A program made the translations under genes and the position numbers. The notes beneath the pieces were generated by a model. The model had not been told where the DNA came from and ran no database searches. It saw only the letters and a list, made by a program, of their open reading frames with translations. A stretch of DNA of 12,248 nucleotides. Origin: a virus. The stretch is from UHGV virus genome UHGV-0192790; one strand, 5' to 3'. Shown piece after piece: positions 810 to 9,399 of this stretch (position 1 is the first letter of the stretch; every line of letters starts with the position of its first letter).

Positions 810-3731
810 CTACGCAACTCGTATAAACAGACCAATCATGACGCTGGCGGAACCGGCAGACCCCAGTCCATTCCCCGACAATGCCCGGTATGTGCCTGGC
901 ATTCCGCCACCGGAACCCTGAACATACACAGAAACACTGCCGTTGTATTTAACCCCGGTCCCGGTCGTACCGTAACACATCAATTCAACCGCACTCAGAC
1001 GTGACCCAGGATAGCTGTAACCTCGCTTTATTCTGCGGTCCGGGTCTGCGTTTCCCTGGCCGTTATATGCCGCCAGTATCAGGCTGCCAGTGCCGTACCA
1101 GGTATCTGTAGTTCCGGGAGCAAGGCCGGACAGAAGAGCAATAATGTCCTGCGAGGTTACCTTCAGTGATTCCCAGTCAATGAGATAACCATTTCCTGTG
1201 GTCCAGTAGCGGTTGTAATAAATGTGGCCATTAACACCATAGAAAATAATCGCCTTTGCTGTATTTATCGGACTCGGTGTGGCATATCTGGACTCAATCC
1301 ACCGAATACTGACAATCCCGCTGAACAGCACATTGGGTATAATTTTATTGCCACCCTCAACAAAATATTCTCCTGGCGTGACCTGTTTTACCCACACCAG
1401 AAAATCATTTTCTGAGTCAAAGCGGACAGTTTCGTTTGTGTTGAATATACGCCCAAAACCGAAGGCATCGGGAAGTGCCAGCCTGCCTTCCGTCCTGTCG
1501 CGAATATCACTCTGTGGCTCCATTGTGGCCGCCGCGCCCAGCGTGATATCGCCCCCTCCGAGCACGGAATGCCCGTTGATGCGCATAAAATCACAGGCAC
1601 GAAACTGTGGGATTTTTCCCCAGGCTGTAACGGATATGGCGGCGGCAACGTCGGCCACCGTGACGGCAGATGTCGCCCGGATTTGCAGGCGTCTGATGGC
1701 AGCCGTGGCTGCCGTCTGAGAAGTGGTGACCTTTGCCACAAAAGCAAAAAAATCACTCATGGCAAACGTATCAATGCCGTCGTAATTTGCCGTGAACAGG
1801 TCCGGGTAAGCACTCTGTATGGCGTCCAGAACCTGCCTGCCGTACCGTTCCACTTCTTCCTGTGTTTCCAGCACCCCAAAGCGCCACGGGGCCACAGAAA
1901 AACGGTCCTTATCAACAAAACGCCCTTCACCAGGCTCTGCCGGGTAATCCGTCTCGTTGTAATACGTCAGGAACCGTTTTTGTTCAGGTACAAACAACGC
2001 AAGCAGGCCAGCCCTGATGGTTTTCATGGCAGCGGTATATTCAGTTGCAGCAGTGGTATCTCCGGCAAGGTCAGCCAGTGTTTTCAGTGCACGTAAACCA
2101 GCATAAACCTCTGCGTTATCCTGACAAAAACACTGTGCATAAGCCCGGTCACCGGGTGCAAGATTGTGCTGGAATACGTTTACCAGACTGGCCACCGGAT
2201 TTATTTCAGCAACGATATTGAACTTTGCCACCTGTTTTATGATTTCCCAGCGGCTGGACCCGCCGATTCCGGCTGGCTCCTGTAACCAGGCACTGTCCGC
2301 AAATTCAGCAATGCAGGCGAACCAGAGCGCCGGGTAGCTGTCCGTGGAGTCCGGCGCAACGGGGGTATACAAATCCGGAGCCACATCCAGAAAAAAATAC
2401 TGCCATGCAGCCGGGATTCGGTTTGAGGGGCTTTTCAGGCACTCCAGCACAGCGGAGCCGGTCCGGACAAAATCTCCGGGGGCTACAGAGCTGATATCAG
2501 GCAACGTTTCCCCGGTGGTGCCCGCGATATTAACAAAAAAAAGCGTGCCGTTTATTGTCAGGCGCTGCCCGGCTTCATAACGGCAACCGGTCATAAACGG
2601 AACCACAAGCCCCAGTCTTAACGCCTTTTCGCAAATTGTCATACGGTCACTGAGGGAAAAGCATTTTCCTTCGCTTTCATACACGGCAAGAAACAGAAAA
2701 TACCAGTTGATACCACCGTTCGCATTCAGGTAGCGCCACAGCCCCTCGTAGCGCCCGCTGTTTATTCTCAACGCCTGTAGCTGAAGGTTCGCCTCTGTTA
2801 CCGAATAACGGGTTGATACTGAAAGGTGGTCATGAATGAATCCCTGCACATGCCCGGCCGCGTCTTTCGCCTCCTGAGCACTTATGGCGGCCGCGGCGGC
2901 ATTCTGACCGGTTTGTTTCGCATCCTCCGCAGTGGATTCCCTGTCCGCAGCCGTTGCAACCGCATTCTTTCTGGCTTCATCAGCAAAACGCTCTGCATCA
3001 TCACGCGCCGCTGCGGTTGCCTTCACATCCTGTGCGGTCTGCTGTGCACTTCCGGCAGCATTATCAGCGCAACTTTTCGCATTCTGCTCGCTCAGGGCGG
3101 CGTTATCCGCATTGTTTTTTGATTCCTCTGCGCTGGATGCTGAGTCATCTGCTGCCTGTTGAGCCTGCTTTACTGCATCTGTAACACTCTGCACACCCTG
3201 CTGTACCTGCCCGGCGTTCTGCTCAACTTCTGAGGCCAGCTGTGCAACGCGCTGTTTATCTTCGGCAACGGCTTCTGCATTCTGCTGTACGTTATCCGCC
3301 AGCATCTGGCAATCATCCTTAATCTTCTGCGCATCAGCTGCGTGTTGCCCGGACTGTCGTTCGCTTTCCGCTGCCGCTTCCGCGCTCTGCTGCGCCTGCG
3401 CCAACATTTCTTCGAAGCGTTTCACCACGTCGGGTTTGAGGTCGCCTTCATCAAGGGCAGTCAGAAAGTCGTTCAGCGTGCCGGGCTTTGAATCGTCGTA
3501 TACGGCAATGTCGCCAACACAGTACTCGTCGCGCCAGTCCTGTTTCAGATATACGCAGTATTTTCCGGTCTGCGCCTTAAAACAGTACTCGCCACAGTTT
3601 CCTGTCACCACATCAGCAACTGTGCGCATCACCACTTCTGACGTGTTTACCCGGGATTTCAGAATTATGTGGCATCCGGACATGGGGATGCCTGCGCCAT
3701 CAATCAGCGCACCTGATATCACTACAGACAT
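810..3731 (-). CDS. Tail fibre protein with lambda Stf-like N-terminal domain, long coiled-coil stalk and large C-terminal globular region
   Basis: 973 aa ORF. N-terminus MSVVISGALIDGAGIPMSGCHIILKSR...IAVYDDSKPGTLNDFL closely parallels the lambda side-tail-fibre N-terminus (MAVKISGVLKDGTGKP...ITVYEDSQPGTLNDFL). Residues about 110-300 are Ala/Gln/Glu/Asp-rich, typical of a fibre shaft. ATG at 3731, TAG at 810-812. Confidence 0.85.
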   Translation of the reverse strand: MSVVISGALIDGAGIPMSGCHIILKSRVNTSEVVMRTVADVVTGNCGEYCFKAQTGKYCVYLKQDWRDEYCVGDIAVYDDSKPGTLNDFLTALDEGDLKPDVVKRFEEMLAQAQQSAEAAAESERQSGQHAADAQKIKDDCQMLADNVQQNAEAVAEDKQRVAQLASEVEQNAGQVQQGVQSVTDAVKQAQQAADDSASSAEESKNNADNAALSEQNAKSCADNAAGSAQQTAQDVKATAAARDDAERFADEARKNAVATAADRESTAEDAKQTGQNAAAAAISAQEAKDAAGHVQGFIHDHLSVSTRYSVTEANLQLQALRINSGRYEGLWRYLNANGGINWYFLFLAVYESEGKCFSLSDRMTICEKALRLGLVVPFMTGCRYEAGQRLTINGTLFFVNIAGTTGETLPDISSVAPGDFVRTGSAVLECLKSPSNRIPAAWQYFFLDVAPDLYTPVAPDSTDSYPALWFACIAEFADSAWLQEPAGIGGSSRWEIIKQVAKFNIVAEINPVASLVNVFQHNLAPGDRAYAQCFCQDNAEVYAGLRALKTLADLAGDTTAATEYTAAMKTIRAGLLALFVPEQKRFLTYYNETDYPAEPGEGRFVDKDRFSVAPWRFGVLETQEEVERYGRQVLDAIQSAYPDLFTANYDGIDTFAMSDFFAFVAKVTTSQTAATAAIRRLQIRATSAVTVADVAAAISVTAWGKIPQFRACDFMRINGHSVLGGGDITLGAAATMEPQSDIRDRTEGRLALPDAFGFGRIFNTNETVRFDSENDFLVWVKQVTPGEYFVEGGNKIIPNVLFSGIVSIRWIESRYATPSPINTAKAIIFYGVNGHIYYNRYWTTGNGYLIDWESLKVTSQDIIALLSGLAPGTTDTWYGTGSLILAAYNGQGNADPDRRIKRGYSYPGSRLSAVELMCYGTTGTGVKYNGSVSVYVQGSGGGMPGTYRALSGNGLGSAGSASVMIGLFIRVA

Positions 3732-6305: not shown

Positions 6306-7515
6306 ACTTATTGACCTGAACCTGTGATGCCACCGTCGAAAAATAGGAATAGGTATCGCCATAAACTAGGCTTGTGTCTTTTGCCGGAAGAACAATATGA
6401 CCGTTAATACCAATGCTCACACTGATTGTTGAGATCAACGTCGCATCAACCAGCAATTTTACGGAGCTGGTAAAAATATCCTGGATTCGCAGCAGATTTA
6501 TCGGGTGTCCGACTTCAATAGAATTGATGTAATCAGCAACGTTTTGCTGCACAGCCATAGCAATACCCGCCGGATCAACATAATCATCAGATACAGTGTT
6601 CCAGGTGATTAGCACCATGACGTTTTGTGATGACGGGATAACGAACGGCACCTGATAAACATCTGGCGAAACGGTTATTGAAACCGTGCGTTTTTCCACT
6701 GCCGCACCAGATGGATTGCTAACATCGTTGGTCAGTTTCGAAATATCCGGTACAGATTTGTAAATAGCATAAGCCACATCATACGGATCACCGCCACCAA
6801 CAACCGCAACCCATTTCCCCAGCGACGACTGCCGGAAAGAAATCAGGTTTTCTCGCACACCGCTTACTGATTTGAGCATCGCTTTAAAGCAATCCGGTGT
6901 TCCCTGCACACCAAACATGCCGGACTCCATGACTTCGGCGCGGTAAGATGCCCACGTTTGCGCCTCCTGACCTGGCATCCCTGCGGTAAGGTTCGTGCAT
7001 TTTACAGGCTGATCTTTGGGTACCGATGTAATGACCTGCGTTACGGTTCCTTCCGGTACAGCCCATGAGCCTGACGTTGTGGCCACACAGTAGACTGGCT
7101 CAGTCTGCCCGCTTTCCGGCACCACCGTATCGCGGGAAACTGCATACTGGTAGTTGCCGTCACCGACAACAAATCCTTTAGGGATACCAAACCCCGGCAA
7201 CGCCTCAAACACCACGTATACCGCCGTATTTGTACTTAATCCCTTCTGTGCTCCATAAATGTTTCCGAGTTGCATCAGTAACGGAATATTTGCGCCGTAT
7301 GGGCTTACGGAGTTAATAAGGTCCACCCGCGCCTGGTCTATTAATGCCAGCGCCCCGACTGCCGTGCTGGCAAGGTCAGTAATAAGCCCCGCCGGAAGGT
7401 TGGCTGTATATCCAGGTACTTTTTCAGCAACTCTGATGATAAGATTTGCAAGCAAATCATTGGGTGGCGTAGGCTGCGCCCCCGCACTGGTCATAGTAAT
7501 TGGTATTTCTGACAT
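6289..7515 (-). CDS. Baseplate J-like protein (P2 gpJ / Mu gp47 / T4 gp6 family), tentative
   Basis: 408 aa. Position upstream of the gpI-position and fibre genes. Internal pattern ...YCVATTSGSWAVPEGTVTQVITSVP... resembles the baseplate J family signature. ATG at 7515 preceded by GGAG with a 5 nt spacer. Confidence 0.5.
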   Translation of the reverse strand: MSEIPITMTSAGAQPTPPNDLLANLIIRVAEKVPGYTANLPAGLITDLASTAVGALALIDQARVDLINSVSPYGANIPLLMQLGNIYGAQKGLSTNTAVYVVFEALPGFGIPKGFVVGDGNYQYAVSRDTVVPESGQTEPVYCVATTSGSWAVPEGTVTQVITSVPKDQPVKCTNLTAGMPGQEAQTWASYRAEVMESGMFGVQGTPDCFKAMLKSVSGVRENLISFRQSSLGKWVAVVGGGDPYDVAYAIYKSVPDISKLTNDVSNPSGAAVEKRTVSITVSPDVYQVPFVIPSSQNVMVLITWNTVSDDYVDPAGIAMAVQQNVADYINSIEVGHPINLLRIQDIFTSSVKLLVDATLISTISVSIGINGHIVLPAKDTSLVYGDTYSYFSTVASQVQVNKYAISD

Positions 7516-7527
7516 ATTTACTCCATT

Positions 7528-7553
7528 AAAAAACCCGCTTTCGCGGGTTTTTT
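7528..7553 (-). terminator. Rho-independent (bidirectional) terminator downstream of the inserted nuclease gene
   Basis: AAAAAACCCGC-TTTC-GCGGGTTTTTT: GC stem 7534-7538 / 7543-7547 with a 4 nt loop, flanked by an A6 run (7528-7533) and a T6 run (7548-7553). It reads as hairpin plus U-run on both strands. Lies 2 nt after the TAA stop (7556-7558) of the inserted gene and directly abuts the RBS of the J-like gene. Confidence 0.8.
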
Positions 7554-7555
7554 AC

Positions 7556-8716
7556 TTATTCAACCTCTTCTAAACTGCTCGCTCTGGACCCTCGGCGGAA
7601 ATTATCATCATTTTTAACATACTCGTATGAATCCAGAATCAAACCAGATATGCGAAGTATATCTTCCGGATTAGTTATATGTATCCTTTTACCATCCGTA
7701 TCAAGTCGAGCTCGTCTTATTTCATTCAACTGAACTTCACTAAGCGAAATAGGTAAAGTTATAAATGAAGATTTTTTATCATAAAATCTTAACAGCCATC
7801 TATTAGTTTTACCATTCAATAGTATACCAAAATATGACTCAGTATCTTTATATTCTATATTATCTTCTGTTTGTATGATTTGTTTTACCCTTTCAAATAG
7901 CTCCAATTCTTTGGCTGTGGTTATTATGTTGGGGTTTTCTTCATCAACAATGGCGTTATTAACTTGTGTATCCGTTGCATCATTTTCTTTAGTTTGCTCT
8001 ACCGGTTGTGTAGATAGCCCGGAAACCACCATTGCGCTAACAGCGCGCTCAACGGCCTGTTTAACTAATGGAGTCACGAACTCAAGAAATCTCTGATTAA
8101 GTTGTCTCTCAATATTTGAACGACTAGCAACATATCGAACAAACTCCAGATCAACTTCACGAAGACTAGAACTGATTGTTTTAGTAAATGAATTCAAATA
8201 AACACTTTCTTCAGCCAGTGTCCGTAAAGCCTCTGGTTTGAATTTATCATAACGAAAACGAAATAATTGTGTAATATCGGAGTGAGTTAGAGAATCCATT
8301 CTTATTTTTAAAAACGGCGTTGAAGCCATTATGTTTTTTTGTTTCAAATCCGTAAAAAAACGCCATTCAACACCATTTGTAATGGCTGATATAGTAACTT
8401 CCGGTGTTGAATTAAAATATCTTGATAGCTGTGGGCAGTGATTATCAATTTGTTCTGAAAACGATTTCGCCTCAATGAACATCACAGGAACATCATGACA
8501 AAATAAAGCGTAATCAACCCGTTCATTAGCCTTAACCCCGGGGAAGTCAGCACTATACTCAGCTTTGACTTTTCTTGGATCATACGGAGTAAAACCAAGA
8601 ATATCTAGTAATGGCATAATGAGTGCTTGTTTTGTCGTTTCTTCAGTTGTACAAAACACCCCCATTTTTGCAACATGCTCTGTGTGTATTTTTAACTTAT
8701 TTGCAAAATTTTCCAT
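7556..8716 (-). CDS. PD-(D/E)xK nuclease-family protein with HsdR-N-like N-terminal domain plus unknown C-terminal domain; candidate moron (defence or homing-type endonuclease)
   Basis: AT-rich ORF. N-terminal region ...QALIMPLLDILGF...ERVDYALFCHDVPVMFIEAKSF...CPQLSRYF...ISAITNGVEWRFF carries the hallmark D / E-x-K / Q...Y / TNG..W motifs of the type I restriction enzyme HsdR N-terminal nuclease fold. Preferred start is the ATG at 8716, preceded by GGAGG with an 8 nt spacer. The track start at 8731 has no SD and adds only MEETS. Stop TAA at 7556-7558. Confidence 0.7.
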   Translation of the reverse strand: MENFANKLKIHTEHVAKMGVFCTTEETTKQALIMPLLDILGFTPYDPRKVKAEYSADFPGVKANERVDYALFCHDVPVMFIEAKSFSEQIDNHCPQLSRYFNSTPEVTISAITNGVEWRFFTDLKQKNIMASTPFLKIRMDSLTHSDITQLFRFRYDKFKPEALRTLAEESVYLNSFTKTISSSLREVDLEFVRYVASRSNIERQLNQRFLEFVTPLVKQAVERAVSAMVVSGLSTQPVEQTKENDATDTQVNNAIVDEENPNIITTAKELELFERVKQIIQTEDNIEYKDTESYFGILLNGKTNRWLLRFYDKKSSFITLPISLSEVQLNEIRRARLDTDGKRIHITNPEDILRISGLILDSYEYVKNDDNFRRGSRASSLEEVE

Positions 8717-8744
8717 GCTTGTCTCCTCCATGGTAACAATATGT

Positions 8745-8774
8745 ATTTTGCAAATCCGAAATAATATATGTCAA
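8745..8774 (-). promoter_or_regulatory. Putative sigma70-type promoter for the inserted nuclease gene
   Basis: Perfect -35 hexamer TTGACA (minus strand, 8774-8769), then an 18 nt AT-rich spacer, then CAAAAT (8750-8745; 4/6 match to TATAAT). Sits about 30-60 nt upstream of the SD-preceded ATG at 8716. The -10 assignment is ambiguous. Confidence 0.4.
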
Positions 8775-8844
8775 TATGCTCCAGCTTAGAAAATTACTCG
8801 CCCCCCCTAAAATATCTCTCTACAGCACTCCAAACCAAGGTAAA

Positions 8845-8861
8845 AGTTTTATCATAAAACT
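8845..8861. promoter_or_regulatory. 17 bp perfect palindrome AGTTTTAT-C-ATAAAACT (candidate operator/protein-binding site)
   Basis: 8 bp arms are exact reverse complements around a single central base. Located between the stop of the 115 aa gene (8867-8869) and the promoter-like region of the inserted gene. Confidence 0.35.
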
Positions 8862-8866
8862 GTGAT

Positions 8867-9214
8867 TCATACCGGCACCTGCGTCCGGTAACTGGTCCCA
8901 TTAAAAAACACAACATCGATGTTATAGGTGGGGTTATCTGCTCCATCTACCTTTGAAATTGCCAGTGATGCAAAATACCCAGCAAACTGTTGCTGAACCA
9001 TGTTCACATAGTAGTCTGGGTAAATCTGCTGCACGATGCACTGCTGTGCAGGAATACCGTAATTCGCGTAAAACGGCGACTCCCCCAATCCCAGCTTTAA
9101 CGTCTGAATGAGCGTCGTCAGCCAGCCATAGGAGAAATCACCGTTGGCGTCAGATTCTACTGCAACCCATTTTTTGTTGCCGTTCGCGTCGGTGACGCGG
9201 CCCCATGTTCTCAT
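8867..9214 (-). CDS. Hypothetical protein; possibly baseplate wedge (gpW/gp25-like) by position and weak motif resemblance
   Basis: 115 aa (the same length as P2 gpW). Segment LIQTLKLGLGESPFYANYG loosely resembles the gp25/gpW G-x-R-x-x-x-x-x-F/Y-G region, but the EPR motif is not evident. ATG at 9214 overlaps the upstream stop (ATGA); GGGGG 5 nt upstream. Confidence 0.35.
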   Translation of the reverse strand: MRTWGRVTDANGNKKWVAVESDANGDFSYGWLTTLIQTLKLGLGESPFYANYGIPAQQCIVQQIYPDYYVNMVQQQFAGYFASLAISKVDGADNPTYNIDVVFFNGTSYRTQVPV

Positions 9215-9399
9215 CGTGCCCCCATCACTTTAACTAACTCTGTCAGTACTGGTGAAAAGGCAAATGCTAAAGCTACGAGTGCAGCGGTGTAATACATGCG
9301 TCGTAAGGTATTGCTTTTTGCCACTAATTTTAAGGCTTTCACAATCCAGTCTCCTCCGCTAAAATTAATCACGGAAGGCTTCCAAACATACGTAATCAT
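9211..9399 (-). CDS. Small predicted membrane protein (one C-terminal hydrophobic helix), function unknown
   Basis: The track ORF starts at a TTG (9414); the first ATG is at 9399. Hydrophobic stretch MYYTAALVALAFAFSPVLTELV. Stop overlaps the next start as ATGA, suggesting translational coupling. No convincing SD, so whether it is a real gene is uncertain. Confidence 0.3.
   Translation of the reverse strand: MITYVWKPSVINFSGGDWIVKALKLVAKSNTLRRMYYTAALVALAFAFSPVLTELVKVMGAR

Follow-up and report, generated by a model that had tools for sequence, protein, structure and literature searches.

A prophage cargo gene that joins an HsdR-type nuclease domain to a double-wing-like domain, a candidate single-protein defence nuclease

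Virus genome UHGV-0192790 was analysed as one 12,248-nucleotide stretch of DNA (the window), which holds the baseplate and tail-fibre module of an Escherichia coli prophage related to Rac-SA53 and phiP27. Within this module lies a minus-strand gene, 7556..8716, whose family is visible in databases only as 'type I restriction endonuclease' or as PHROG 4225 'endonuclease'. The question raised by the locus is what such a protein does by itself among tail genes. The best explanation, to which we give an even chance, is an uncharacterised stand-alone, lysogen-expressed, restriction-like single-protein defence nuclease carried as prophage cargo. Its rivals, in descending order of weight, are an abortive-infection nuclease that senses a trigger, a selfish endonuclease of the homing type, a nuclease that serves DNA metabolism of the phage itself and an orphaned piece of a type I enzyme.

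The finding is confined to one open reading frame (ORF) at 7556..8731 on the minus strand, which encodes 391 amino acids. Translation probably starts at the second in-frame ATG, position 8716, because a Shine-Dalgarno sequence read directly from the DNA, GGAGGAG (8723..8729, minus strand), lies 6 nt upstream at ideal spacing, RefSeq WP_000426902.1 ('type I restriction endonuclease') starts identical E. coli genes at the same codon, and homologues are 383-388 amino acids long. This start gives a coding sequence (CDS) of 386 amino acids plus stop at 7556..8716 (minus strand), which PHROG 4225 matches over its full length (E = 1.3e-147). An earlier, sequence-only reading of this DNA gave the coordinates of the 386-residue CDS together with residue numbers that belong to the 391-residue frame. 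All residue numbers here are in the 391-residue frame, counted from the upstream ATG at 8731.

Domain layout and the nuclease module

The structure of the protein was predicted with AlphaFold2 from a 67-sequence alignment composed of two clades that are about 37% identical to each other. The full-length model has a mean predicted local distance difference test score (pLDDT) of 85.5 and a predicted template modelling score (pTM) of 0.53. By region, the pLDDT is above 90 for residues 1-165, 58-76 for 166-239, below 50 for 239-257 and about 96 for 265-375. The low pTM coupled with high local confidence indicates two rigid modules whose mutual orientation is undefined. Modelled alone, the C-terminal 130 residues have a pLDDT of 89.7 and a pTM of 0.80. 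The predicted layout of nuclease core, helical region, linker and separable C-terminal module is real, and the sequence-only reading was right to propose a C-terminal module (residues 265-378, pLDDT ~96 in the full-length model) distinct from the rest of the protein, not one continuous domain.

The N-terminal module (residues 6-165; 8237..8716, minus strand) is identified as an HsdR-type PD-(D/E)xK nuclease domain by Pfam, AlphaFold2, Foldseek and conservation. Two Pfam families match above their gathering cut-offs: HSDR_N at residues 68-133 (E = 5.7e-14, 52.9 bits against 25.1) and HSDR_N_2 at residues 30-132 (37.6 bits against 25), in agreement with a nuclease core earlier placed at about residues 30-128. 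The top Foldseek matches in the PDB for the nuclease are the HsdR structures 3h1t (probability 0.99) and 2w00. The catalytic motifs are E30/E31, D73, E87-A-K89 and Q101-LSR-Y105. Motif residues are invariant or at least 99% conserved in sets of 67 and 124 sequences, and in the larger set, which extends down to about 30% identity, E30, D73, E87, K89, Q101, Y105 and G120 are 99-100% conserved. The QxxxY motif is typical of HsdR and RecB-family nucleases and is needed for cleavage by EcoR124I (PMC2475608). The PD-(D/E)xK triad and QxxxY appear intact, and because the catalytic residues are conserved the nuclease looks active, with DNA cleavage as its predicted activity.

The database name of the protein implies a type I R subunit. 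Type I R subunits (HsdR of EcoR124I and EcoKI; PF04313 and PF13588) have the same D...ExK core and RecB-family QxxxY, but the protein encoded here lacks the superfamily 2 (SF2) translocase motor, the HsdM-contacting helical domain and adjacent HsdM and HsdS genes, and has a linker and a double-wing-like C-terminal domain instead. No ResIII or Helicase_C match was obtained in the 386-residue protein, in which Pfam finds HSDR_N and HSDR_N_2 only and which, at 19 bits, stays far below the cut-off of 729 set for the NCBIfam type I endonuclease equivalog. Neither hsdM nor hsdS is found in the window or adjacent to the gene in 13 other contexts inspected; the sole HsdM-like match, in one Edwardsiella locus, is to a partial ORF that lies at the locus edge, about 7.6 kb from the gene. 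The protein is thus no type I R subunit, and the label 'type I restriction endonuclease' is a misnomer, because there is no helicase motor and there are no HsdM/HsdS partners. An orphan R-subunit fragment, whether defunct or still active together with HsdM/HsdS of the host, would account for the name 'type I restriction endonuclease (subunit R)' and for the HSDR_N domain. The missing motor and partners speak against it, and so does a 350-400-residue two-module architecture that is conserved down to about 30% identity, which argues against decay of a type I fragment. The evidence is largely against this explanation, and we consider it very improbable.

A second naming problem was seen in Clostridium and Caloramator. 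The members P0143, P0166, P0185 and P0191 are labelled 'DNA polymerase III subunit epsilon' by NCBI, and they carry only HSDR_N domains, so the polymerase names appear to be propagated misannotation.

The nuclease is followed by a helical middle region (residues 166-238; 8018..8236, minus strand), which the sequence-only reading had also recognised and which the AlphaFold2 secondary structure resolves into three long helices at 166-191, 195-204 and 213-239. Its conservation is about equal to that of the nuclease among close relatives, and it may be a dimerisation or connector element. Next comes a disordered polar/acidic linker (residues 239-264; 7940..8017, minus strand). The slightly longer segment earlier described as a linker, VSGLS...EENPN at 236-268, has a net charge of -6 and includes the stretch at 239-257 with the low pLDDT noted above. 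A linker is kept throughout the family with a length of 4-78 amino acids (median 33) and an unconserved sequence, and it is the fastest-evolving segment, with mean identities of 40%, 34% and 12% in three sequence sets. The protein ends in an unstructured, lineage-specific tail (residues 379-391; 7559..7597, minus strand; pLDDT about 45). The acidic character claimed for this tail is present, but the tail is restricted to close enterobacterial relatives and most family members are without it. A scan of the longer family members for additional domains that might be informative turned up one partial TerD fusion and nothing else. The protein concerned, P0283, is a distant member of 509 amino acids with a partial TerD domain N-terminal to the nuclease, either a real fusion or a gene-calling artefact.

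The C-terminal domain and its possible ligands

The C-terminal alpha/beta domain (residues 265-378; 7598..7939, minus strand) has a predicted fold of the double-wing, or YdhG-YjbR-MotA C-terminal-domain-like, class. The highest-scoring structure match is the YdhG-like protein 9t2w (8.7 over 99 residues, 2.8 Å). Matches follow to the DUF419/YjbR family (2a1v, 6.7; 2fki, 6.4; 2kfp, 5.7), the T4 MotA C-terminal DNA-binding domain (5jlt, 6.0; 6k4y, 5.1), DUF1054 (3mqz, 5.0; 2a8e, 4.9) and CyaY frataxins (4jpd, 4.9; 4hs5, 4.7). Foldseek on the full-length model independently gives 2oc6 and 9t2w, and BFVD gives weak matches only, one to MotA (probability 0.72) and others to several proteins of Bacillus phage G. 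The domain shares the alpha-beta sandwich 'double wing' fold with YjbR, DUF1801 and the MotA C-terminal domain, and its fold neighbourhood comprises the T4 MotA C-terminal domain, YjbR (DUF419, PF04237), YdhG (DUF1801, PF08818) and McrB-N. The modelled fold class is double-wing-like and resembles known DNA-reading domains. YjbR and the MotA C-terminal domain are regarded as having a fold that binds DNA, the 'double wing', and fusions of GIY-YIG and PLD nucleases to YjbR occur in defence contexts (PMC7641849).

The sequence-only reading had offered two views of this module. The first, a degenerate duplicate of the nuclease suggested by a motif echo, was rejected: BLASTP of the N-terminal against the C-terminal part gives E = 14, profile-profile comparison with hhalign gives a probability of 0.3%, and the descriptions of the 60 structure matches listed include neither a restriction-endonuclease fold nor a tail protein. 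The second, a distinct sensor or DNA-binding domain, holds for the separate double-wing-like fold; DNA binding by the domain would be in keeping with that fold. Sequence searches were negative. No Pfam family matches the C-terminal domain or any of 49 homologous domains, and this includes YjbR, DUF1801 and MotA at E<=10 for the domain itself and E<=1 for the 49 homologues. A profile search of the PDB with the domain gave no sequence match, the full-length profile against the PDB returned weak chemoreceptor-helix noise and a single-sequence search returned weak haemagglutinin noise.

Conservation in the domain is concentrated at a few positions. T271, T272, E275, D296, Y300 and R315 are conserved across the deep family, and K295 and W312 are conserved additionally within closer relatives. 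Mean identity is lower for the C-terminal domain than for the nuclease in each of the three sequence sets (64% against 86%, 55% against 76% and 26% against 47%). Faster divergence than the nuclease is the pattern expected of a specificity or sensor module.

A sensor need not read DNA, and this is where the leading rival enters. An abortive-infection nuclease would have a C-terminal domain that binds a phage protein or small ligand, or that masks the nuclease, perhaps via the acidic helix TTxEEL; infection would then free a non-specific nuclease that destroys phage and host DNA. The fold class also holds proteins that do not bind DNA (the frataxin-labelled YdhG-like protein, CyaY and PsiB), the charge of the C-terminal domain is near neutral, and on helix 1 E275 is 94% conserved and an acidic residue is preferred at 274. 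The genomic context described below fits this explanation and the best explanation equally, and with no methyltransferase the activity needs some restraint. However, AlphaFold2 shows no confident interdomain contact (pTM 0.53 and a disordered linker), nuclease-YjbR fusions are read as DNA-targeting (PMC7641849) and no trigger is known. We regard an abortive-infection nuclease as possible but unlikely.

Genomic position and the cargo cassette

An exhaustive search, with clustering at 50% identity, gave 3,289 clusters up to a limit of E<=1e-3 and 256 up to E<=1e-30. Full-length members mostly measure 345-400 amino acids and align over both modules. Members occur in Enterobacterales, Clostridia, lactic acid bacteria, Porphyromonas, Corynebacterium, Fusobacterium and one Methanococcus, and IMG/VR contains at least 527 viral-contig loci. 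The two-module family is both large and old.

Position is the most informative feature of the family. Homologues follow various kinds of prophage repressor 8-170 bp downstream and in the same orientation, as in Klebsiella phage KpF5, where the repressor is annotated, and in Citrobacter, Providencia, Enterobacter and Xenorhabdus chromosomes. Streptococcus phage IPP25 has its homologue between an annotated repressor and the integrase, Clostridium phage CWou-2020a downstream of helix-turn-helix (HTH) regulators in the lysogeny module, and Lacticaseibacillus phage P7.1 in the same gene layout with unannotated neighbours. The upstream ORF is co-oriented in 74 of the 77 IMG/VR loci that have upstream sequence. 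A repressor is upstream in about 36 of the 77: 16 are RacR (NCBIfam equivalog, 4.3e-76), about 18 are CI-type proteins with HTH_3 and Peptidase_S24 domains, which fall into four clusters, and 2 are weakly DicA-like. The 77 loci include near-identical prophages, and the number of distinct repressor types therefore outweighs the raw count. Apart from these repressors, no conserved partner gene was found upstream or downstream in the 77 loci, whose downstream ORFs sort into 45 clusters. None of the loci inspected has a DNA methyltransferase gene next to the homologue.

The rexAB genes of phage lambda are exclusion genes expressed in the lysogen from the repressor operon, downstream of cI. Many family members have the same position, immediately downstream of a repressor and co-oriented with it. 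The proteins and the presumed mechanism are unrelated to those of rexAB, however, and the gene in the window sits in a cargo slot of the tail operon, not beside a repressor.

In Citrobacter koseri (L008-L011, between purB and phoPQ) and Xenorhabdus (L027) the prophage has decayed, and the repressor-nuclease pair is intact while other phage genes are mostly lost or fragmentary. Retention of the pair in decayed remnants, in many Citrobacter contigs, suggests that it is kept for the benefit of the host. Other family members occupy tail-module slots, the window's own among them, or, in Porphyromonas phages, a cargo block that contains HicAB. Still others are neighbours of the Q antiterminator, among them a 78%-identical variant in the E. 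coli JNEC-KY177 Stx2 prophage (L016), which lies on the opposite strand between that gene and a methyltransferase/tRNA/stx2 block. In an integrase-bounded Clostridium island (L012-L015) the gene is followed, about 400 bp to 8 kb downstream and before the integrase, by three Schlafen-group-3-type helicase genes, a MazG-like gene and a gene with an nSTAND3 match; this locus looks like a defence island on an integrative element.

These positions bear on a nuclease for the phage's own life cycle, which would act in recombination, in processing of replication intermediates or in degradation of host DNA, its C-terminal domain serving as an adaptor to DNA or to a partner. PHROG files the family under 'DNA, RNA and nucleotide metabolism', and some loci are near the recombination genes RecT, RdgC and RecE. 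Set against this, the gene is dispensable and patchy, with presence in 28 of 5,426 complete E. coli genomes and absence from close phage relatives; it is co-oriented with repressors, not placed in early lytic operons, and it is found outside prophages too. We judge a role in the phage's own DNA metabolism improbable.

The gene in the window is part of a cargo cassette of 1,335 bp and about 35-36% GC at 7521..8855, between the baseplate-J gene and the phrog_7986 gene, as blastn against phage Rac-SA53 and the GC content show. Identity to Rac-SA53 is 94% up to window position 7520 and resumes from 8856, and the GC content is 35.8% in the nuclease gene and 49-50% in both flanks. In Rac-SA53 the same breakpoints enclose 1,850 bp, which hold three other genes in the opposite orientation; one of them encodes an AntA antirepressor. 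Just upstream of the CDS, a sigma-70 promoter-like site, TTGACA-18 nt-CAAAAT (8745..8774, minus strand), is the top-scoring site within 7300-9300 (10 of 12 consensus matches). An intrinsic terminator, AAAAAA-CCCGC-GAAA-GCGGG-TTTTTT (7528..7553, minus strand), was read directly from the sequence after a pattern scan had missed it; it lies 2 nt past the nuclease stop and 13 nt ahead of the baseplate-J start. With promoter-like site, Shine-Dalgarno sequence, CDS and terminator all inside it, the cassette looks like an autonomous transcription unit without a partner gene.

I-TevI consists of a catalytic domain, a flexible linker and a DNA-binding domain. The same layout could make the gene a free-standing homing-type or selfish endonuclease that spreads its cassette among related phage genomes and has no part in host defence. 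The sharp cassette boundaries, the own expression signals and the conserved phage genes on either side are what such an element would show, and the family is found at many genomic positions in distant phyla, one archaeon included. The commonest position is nevertheless a lysogen-expressed repressor operon, which recurs with several repressor types, and the gene and repressor are retained together in the decayed remnants. In addition, the same slot of related phages carries unrelated cargo on the other strand, which indicates a general swap site rather than a homing site. A homing-type endonuclease has little chance of being the correct explanation.

The slot itself is the junction of the baseplate-J and phrog_7986 genes (7516-8866 in the window, 8178-10042 in L001 and 6779-7830 in L028), and cargo is exchanged there. 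It contains the nuclease cassette here. In Rac-SA53 it is occupied on the opposite strand by rac62, rac61 and the AntA antirepressor, and in a third relative, pPE4, by yet another gene combination, ORF64 with an antirepressor. The symmetric A6-stem-loop-T6 terminator sits inside the late tail operon, before the baseplate-J start, and late transcription would have to read through it, presumably by antitermination.

Proposed action, known systems and other features of the window

The best explanation can be put as a sequence of steps. A catalytically intact HsdR-type PD-(D/E)xK/QxxxY nuclease domain is joined by way of a helical connector and then a flexible linker to a double-wing-like domain that is independent of it and most likely recognises target DNA, possibly a DNA modification or another mark of foreign DNA. 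Lysogens would express the protein, here off its own promoter and in many other prophages as part of the repressor operon. The nuclease would cut, probably as a dimer formed through the helical region. It would work without a methyltransferase or other partner on incoming phage or mobile DNA, and the predicted outcome is superinfection exclusion or defence for the lysogen. With no methyltransferase, self-DNA must be spared in another way, either by a target feature absent from the host or by gated activity.

Several observations weigh against this explanation. An unpartnered nuclease would need some means of sparing host DNA, and the E. coli Stx2-prophage variant is about 0.8 kb from a phage DNA methyltransferase. 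The C-terminal domain has no sequence-level membership in YjbR, DUF1801 or MotA, it is not basic overall (net charge about -2 here, family median 0), and its top structural match, 9t2w, is labelled frataxin-like, not DNA-binding. The promoter was called by consensus match only. Some members are solitary among housekeeping genes (Methanococcus and C. perfringens). No family in PADLOC-DB v2.0.0 matches, even at E<=1, so that the gene family is currently invisible to PADLOC. A literature search that included the text of DefensePredictor and a domain-centric screen found no functional study; it found passing genome-annotation mentions only, for example of a phage-resistant Campylobacter strain with a gene of the same annotation.

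It is well known in principle that mobile DNA can carry a nuclease coupled to a reader module and no methyltransferase. Type IV enzymes and END nucleases, which were described recently (END-PaCF1; PMC12191111) and like type IV enzymes have a target feature absent from the host, show the same separable cleavage and putative DNA-sensing modules, have no cognate methyltransferase and are likewise found on mobile or defence-associated DNA. The architecture and neighbourhoods of the present family conform to this type IV pattern of a nuclease plus a reader module, the reader role being putative, with no cognate methyltransferase. The parts differ: END nucleases join a type IIS-like nuclease to an inactive EndoIII, whereas the protein here joins an HsdR-type nuclease to a double-wing-like domain. 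As far as we found, the literature contains no description of the HsdR-nuclease/double-wing pairing, of the unannotated C-terminal domain or of the recurrent repressor-operon position.

A more specific proposal goes further and is correspondingly tentative; we would sooner doubt it than accept it. The family would be a new class of methyltransferase-less restriction enzyme that senses modification or foreignness. Its double-wing domain, from the McrB-N fold neighbourhood, would read and perhaps flip non-canonical bases via a cluster of conserved residues, K295, D296, Y300, W312 and R315, and would direct the tethered HsdR-type nuclease to the DNA. Prophages of Proteobacteria, Firmicutes, Bacteroidetes and Actinobacteria would deploy it from repressor operons as a widespread counterpart of rexAB.

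If the defence reading is true, thousands of 'type I restriction endonuclease' genes would be a distinct single-gene immunity module that temperate phages of several phyla express from lysogeny operons. The restriction-like defence repertoire would gain a new nuclease-reader pairing, HsdR-type with a double-wing fold, and a C-terminal domain without a Pfam family would receive its first function. The proposal is easy to test: the cassette is self-contained and 1.3 kb long, the catalytic residues are clear and the C-terminal domain separates cleanly. The analysis also corrects a systematic misannotation and, for prophages of the Rac-SA53/phiP27 type, identifies a place in the tail operon where cargo is swapped.

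Two further observations concern the surrounding tail module. Over 60% of the window, PP818812.1 ('Actinobacillus phage vB_Apl-pPE4'; L028) is 93.5% identical at the DNA level to the tail module of the E. coli prophage. Such likeness is surprising for the recorded host, Actinobacillus pleuropneumoniae, and may reflect a host-assignment or contamination problem. The tail-fibre gene of the window (810-3731, minus strand) encodes 973 amino acids with a prophage tail-fibre N-terminal domain. Residues 539-637 match an MGH1-like glycoside hydrolase just under threshold (25.2 bits against a cut-off of 27), and the protein may be a depolymerase-type fibre.

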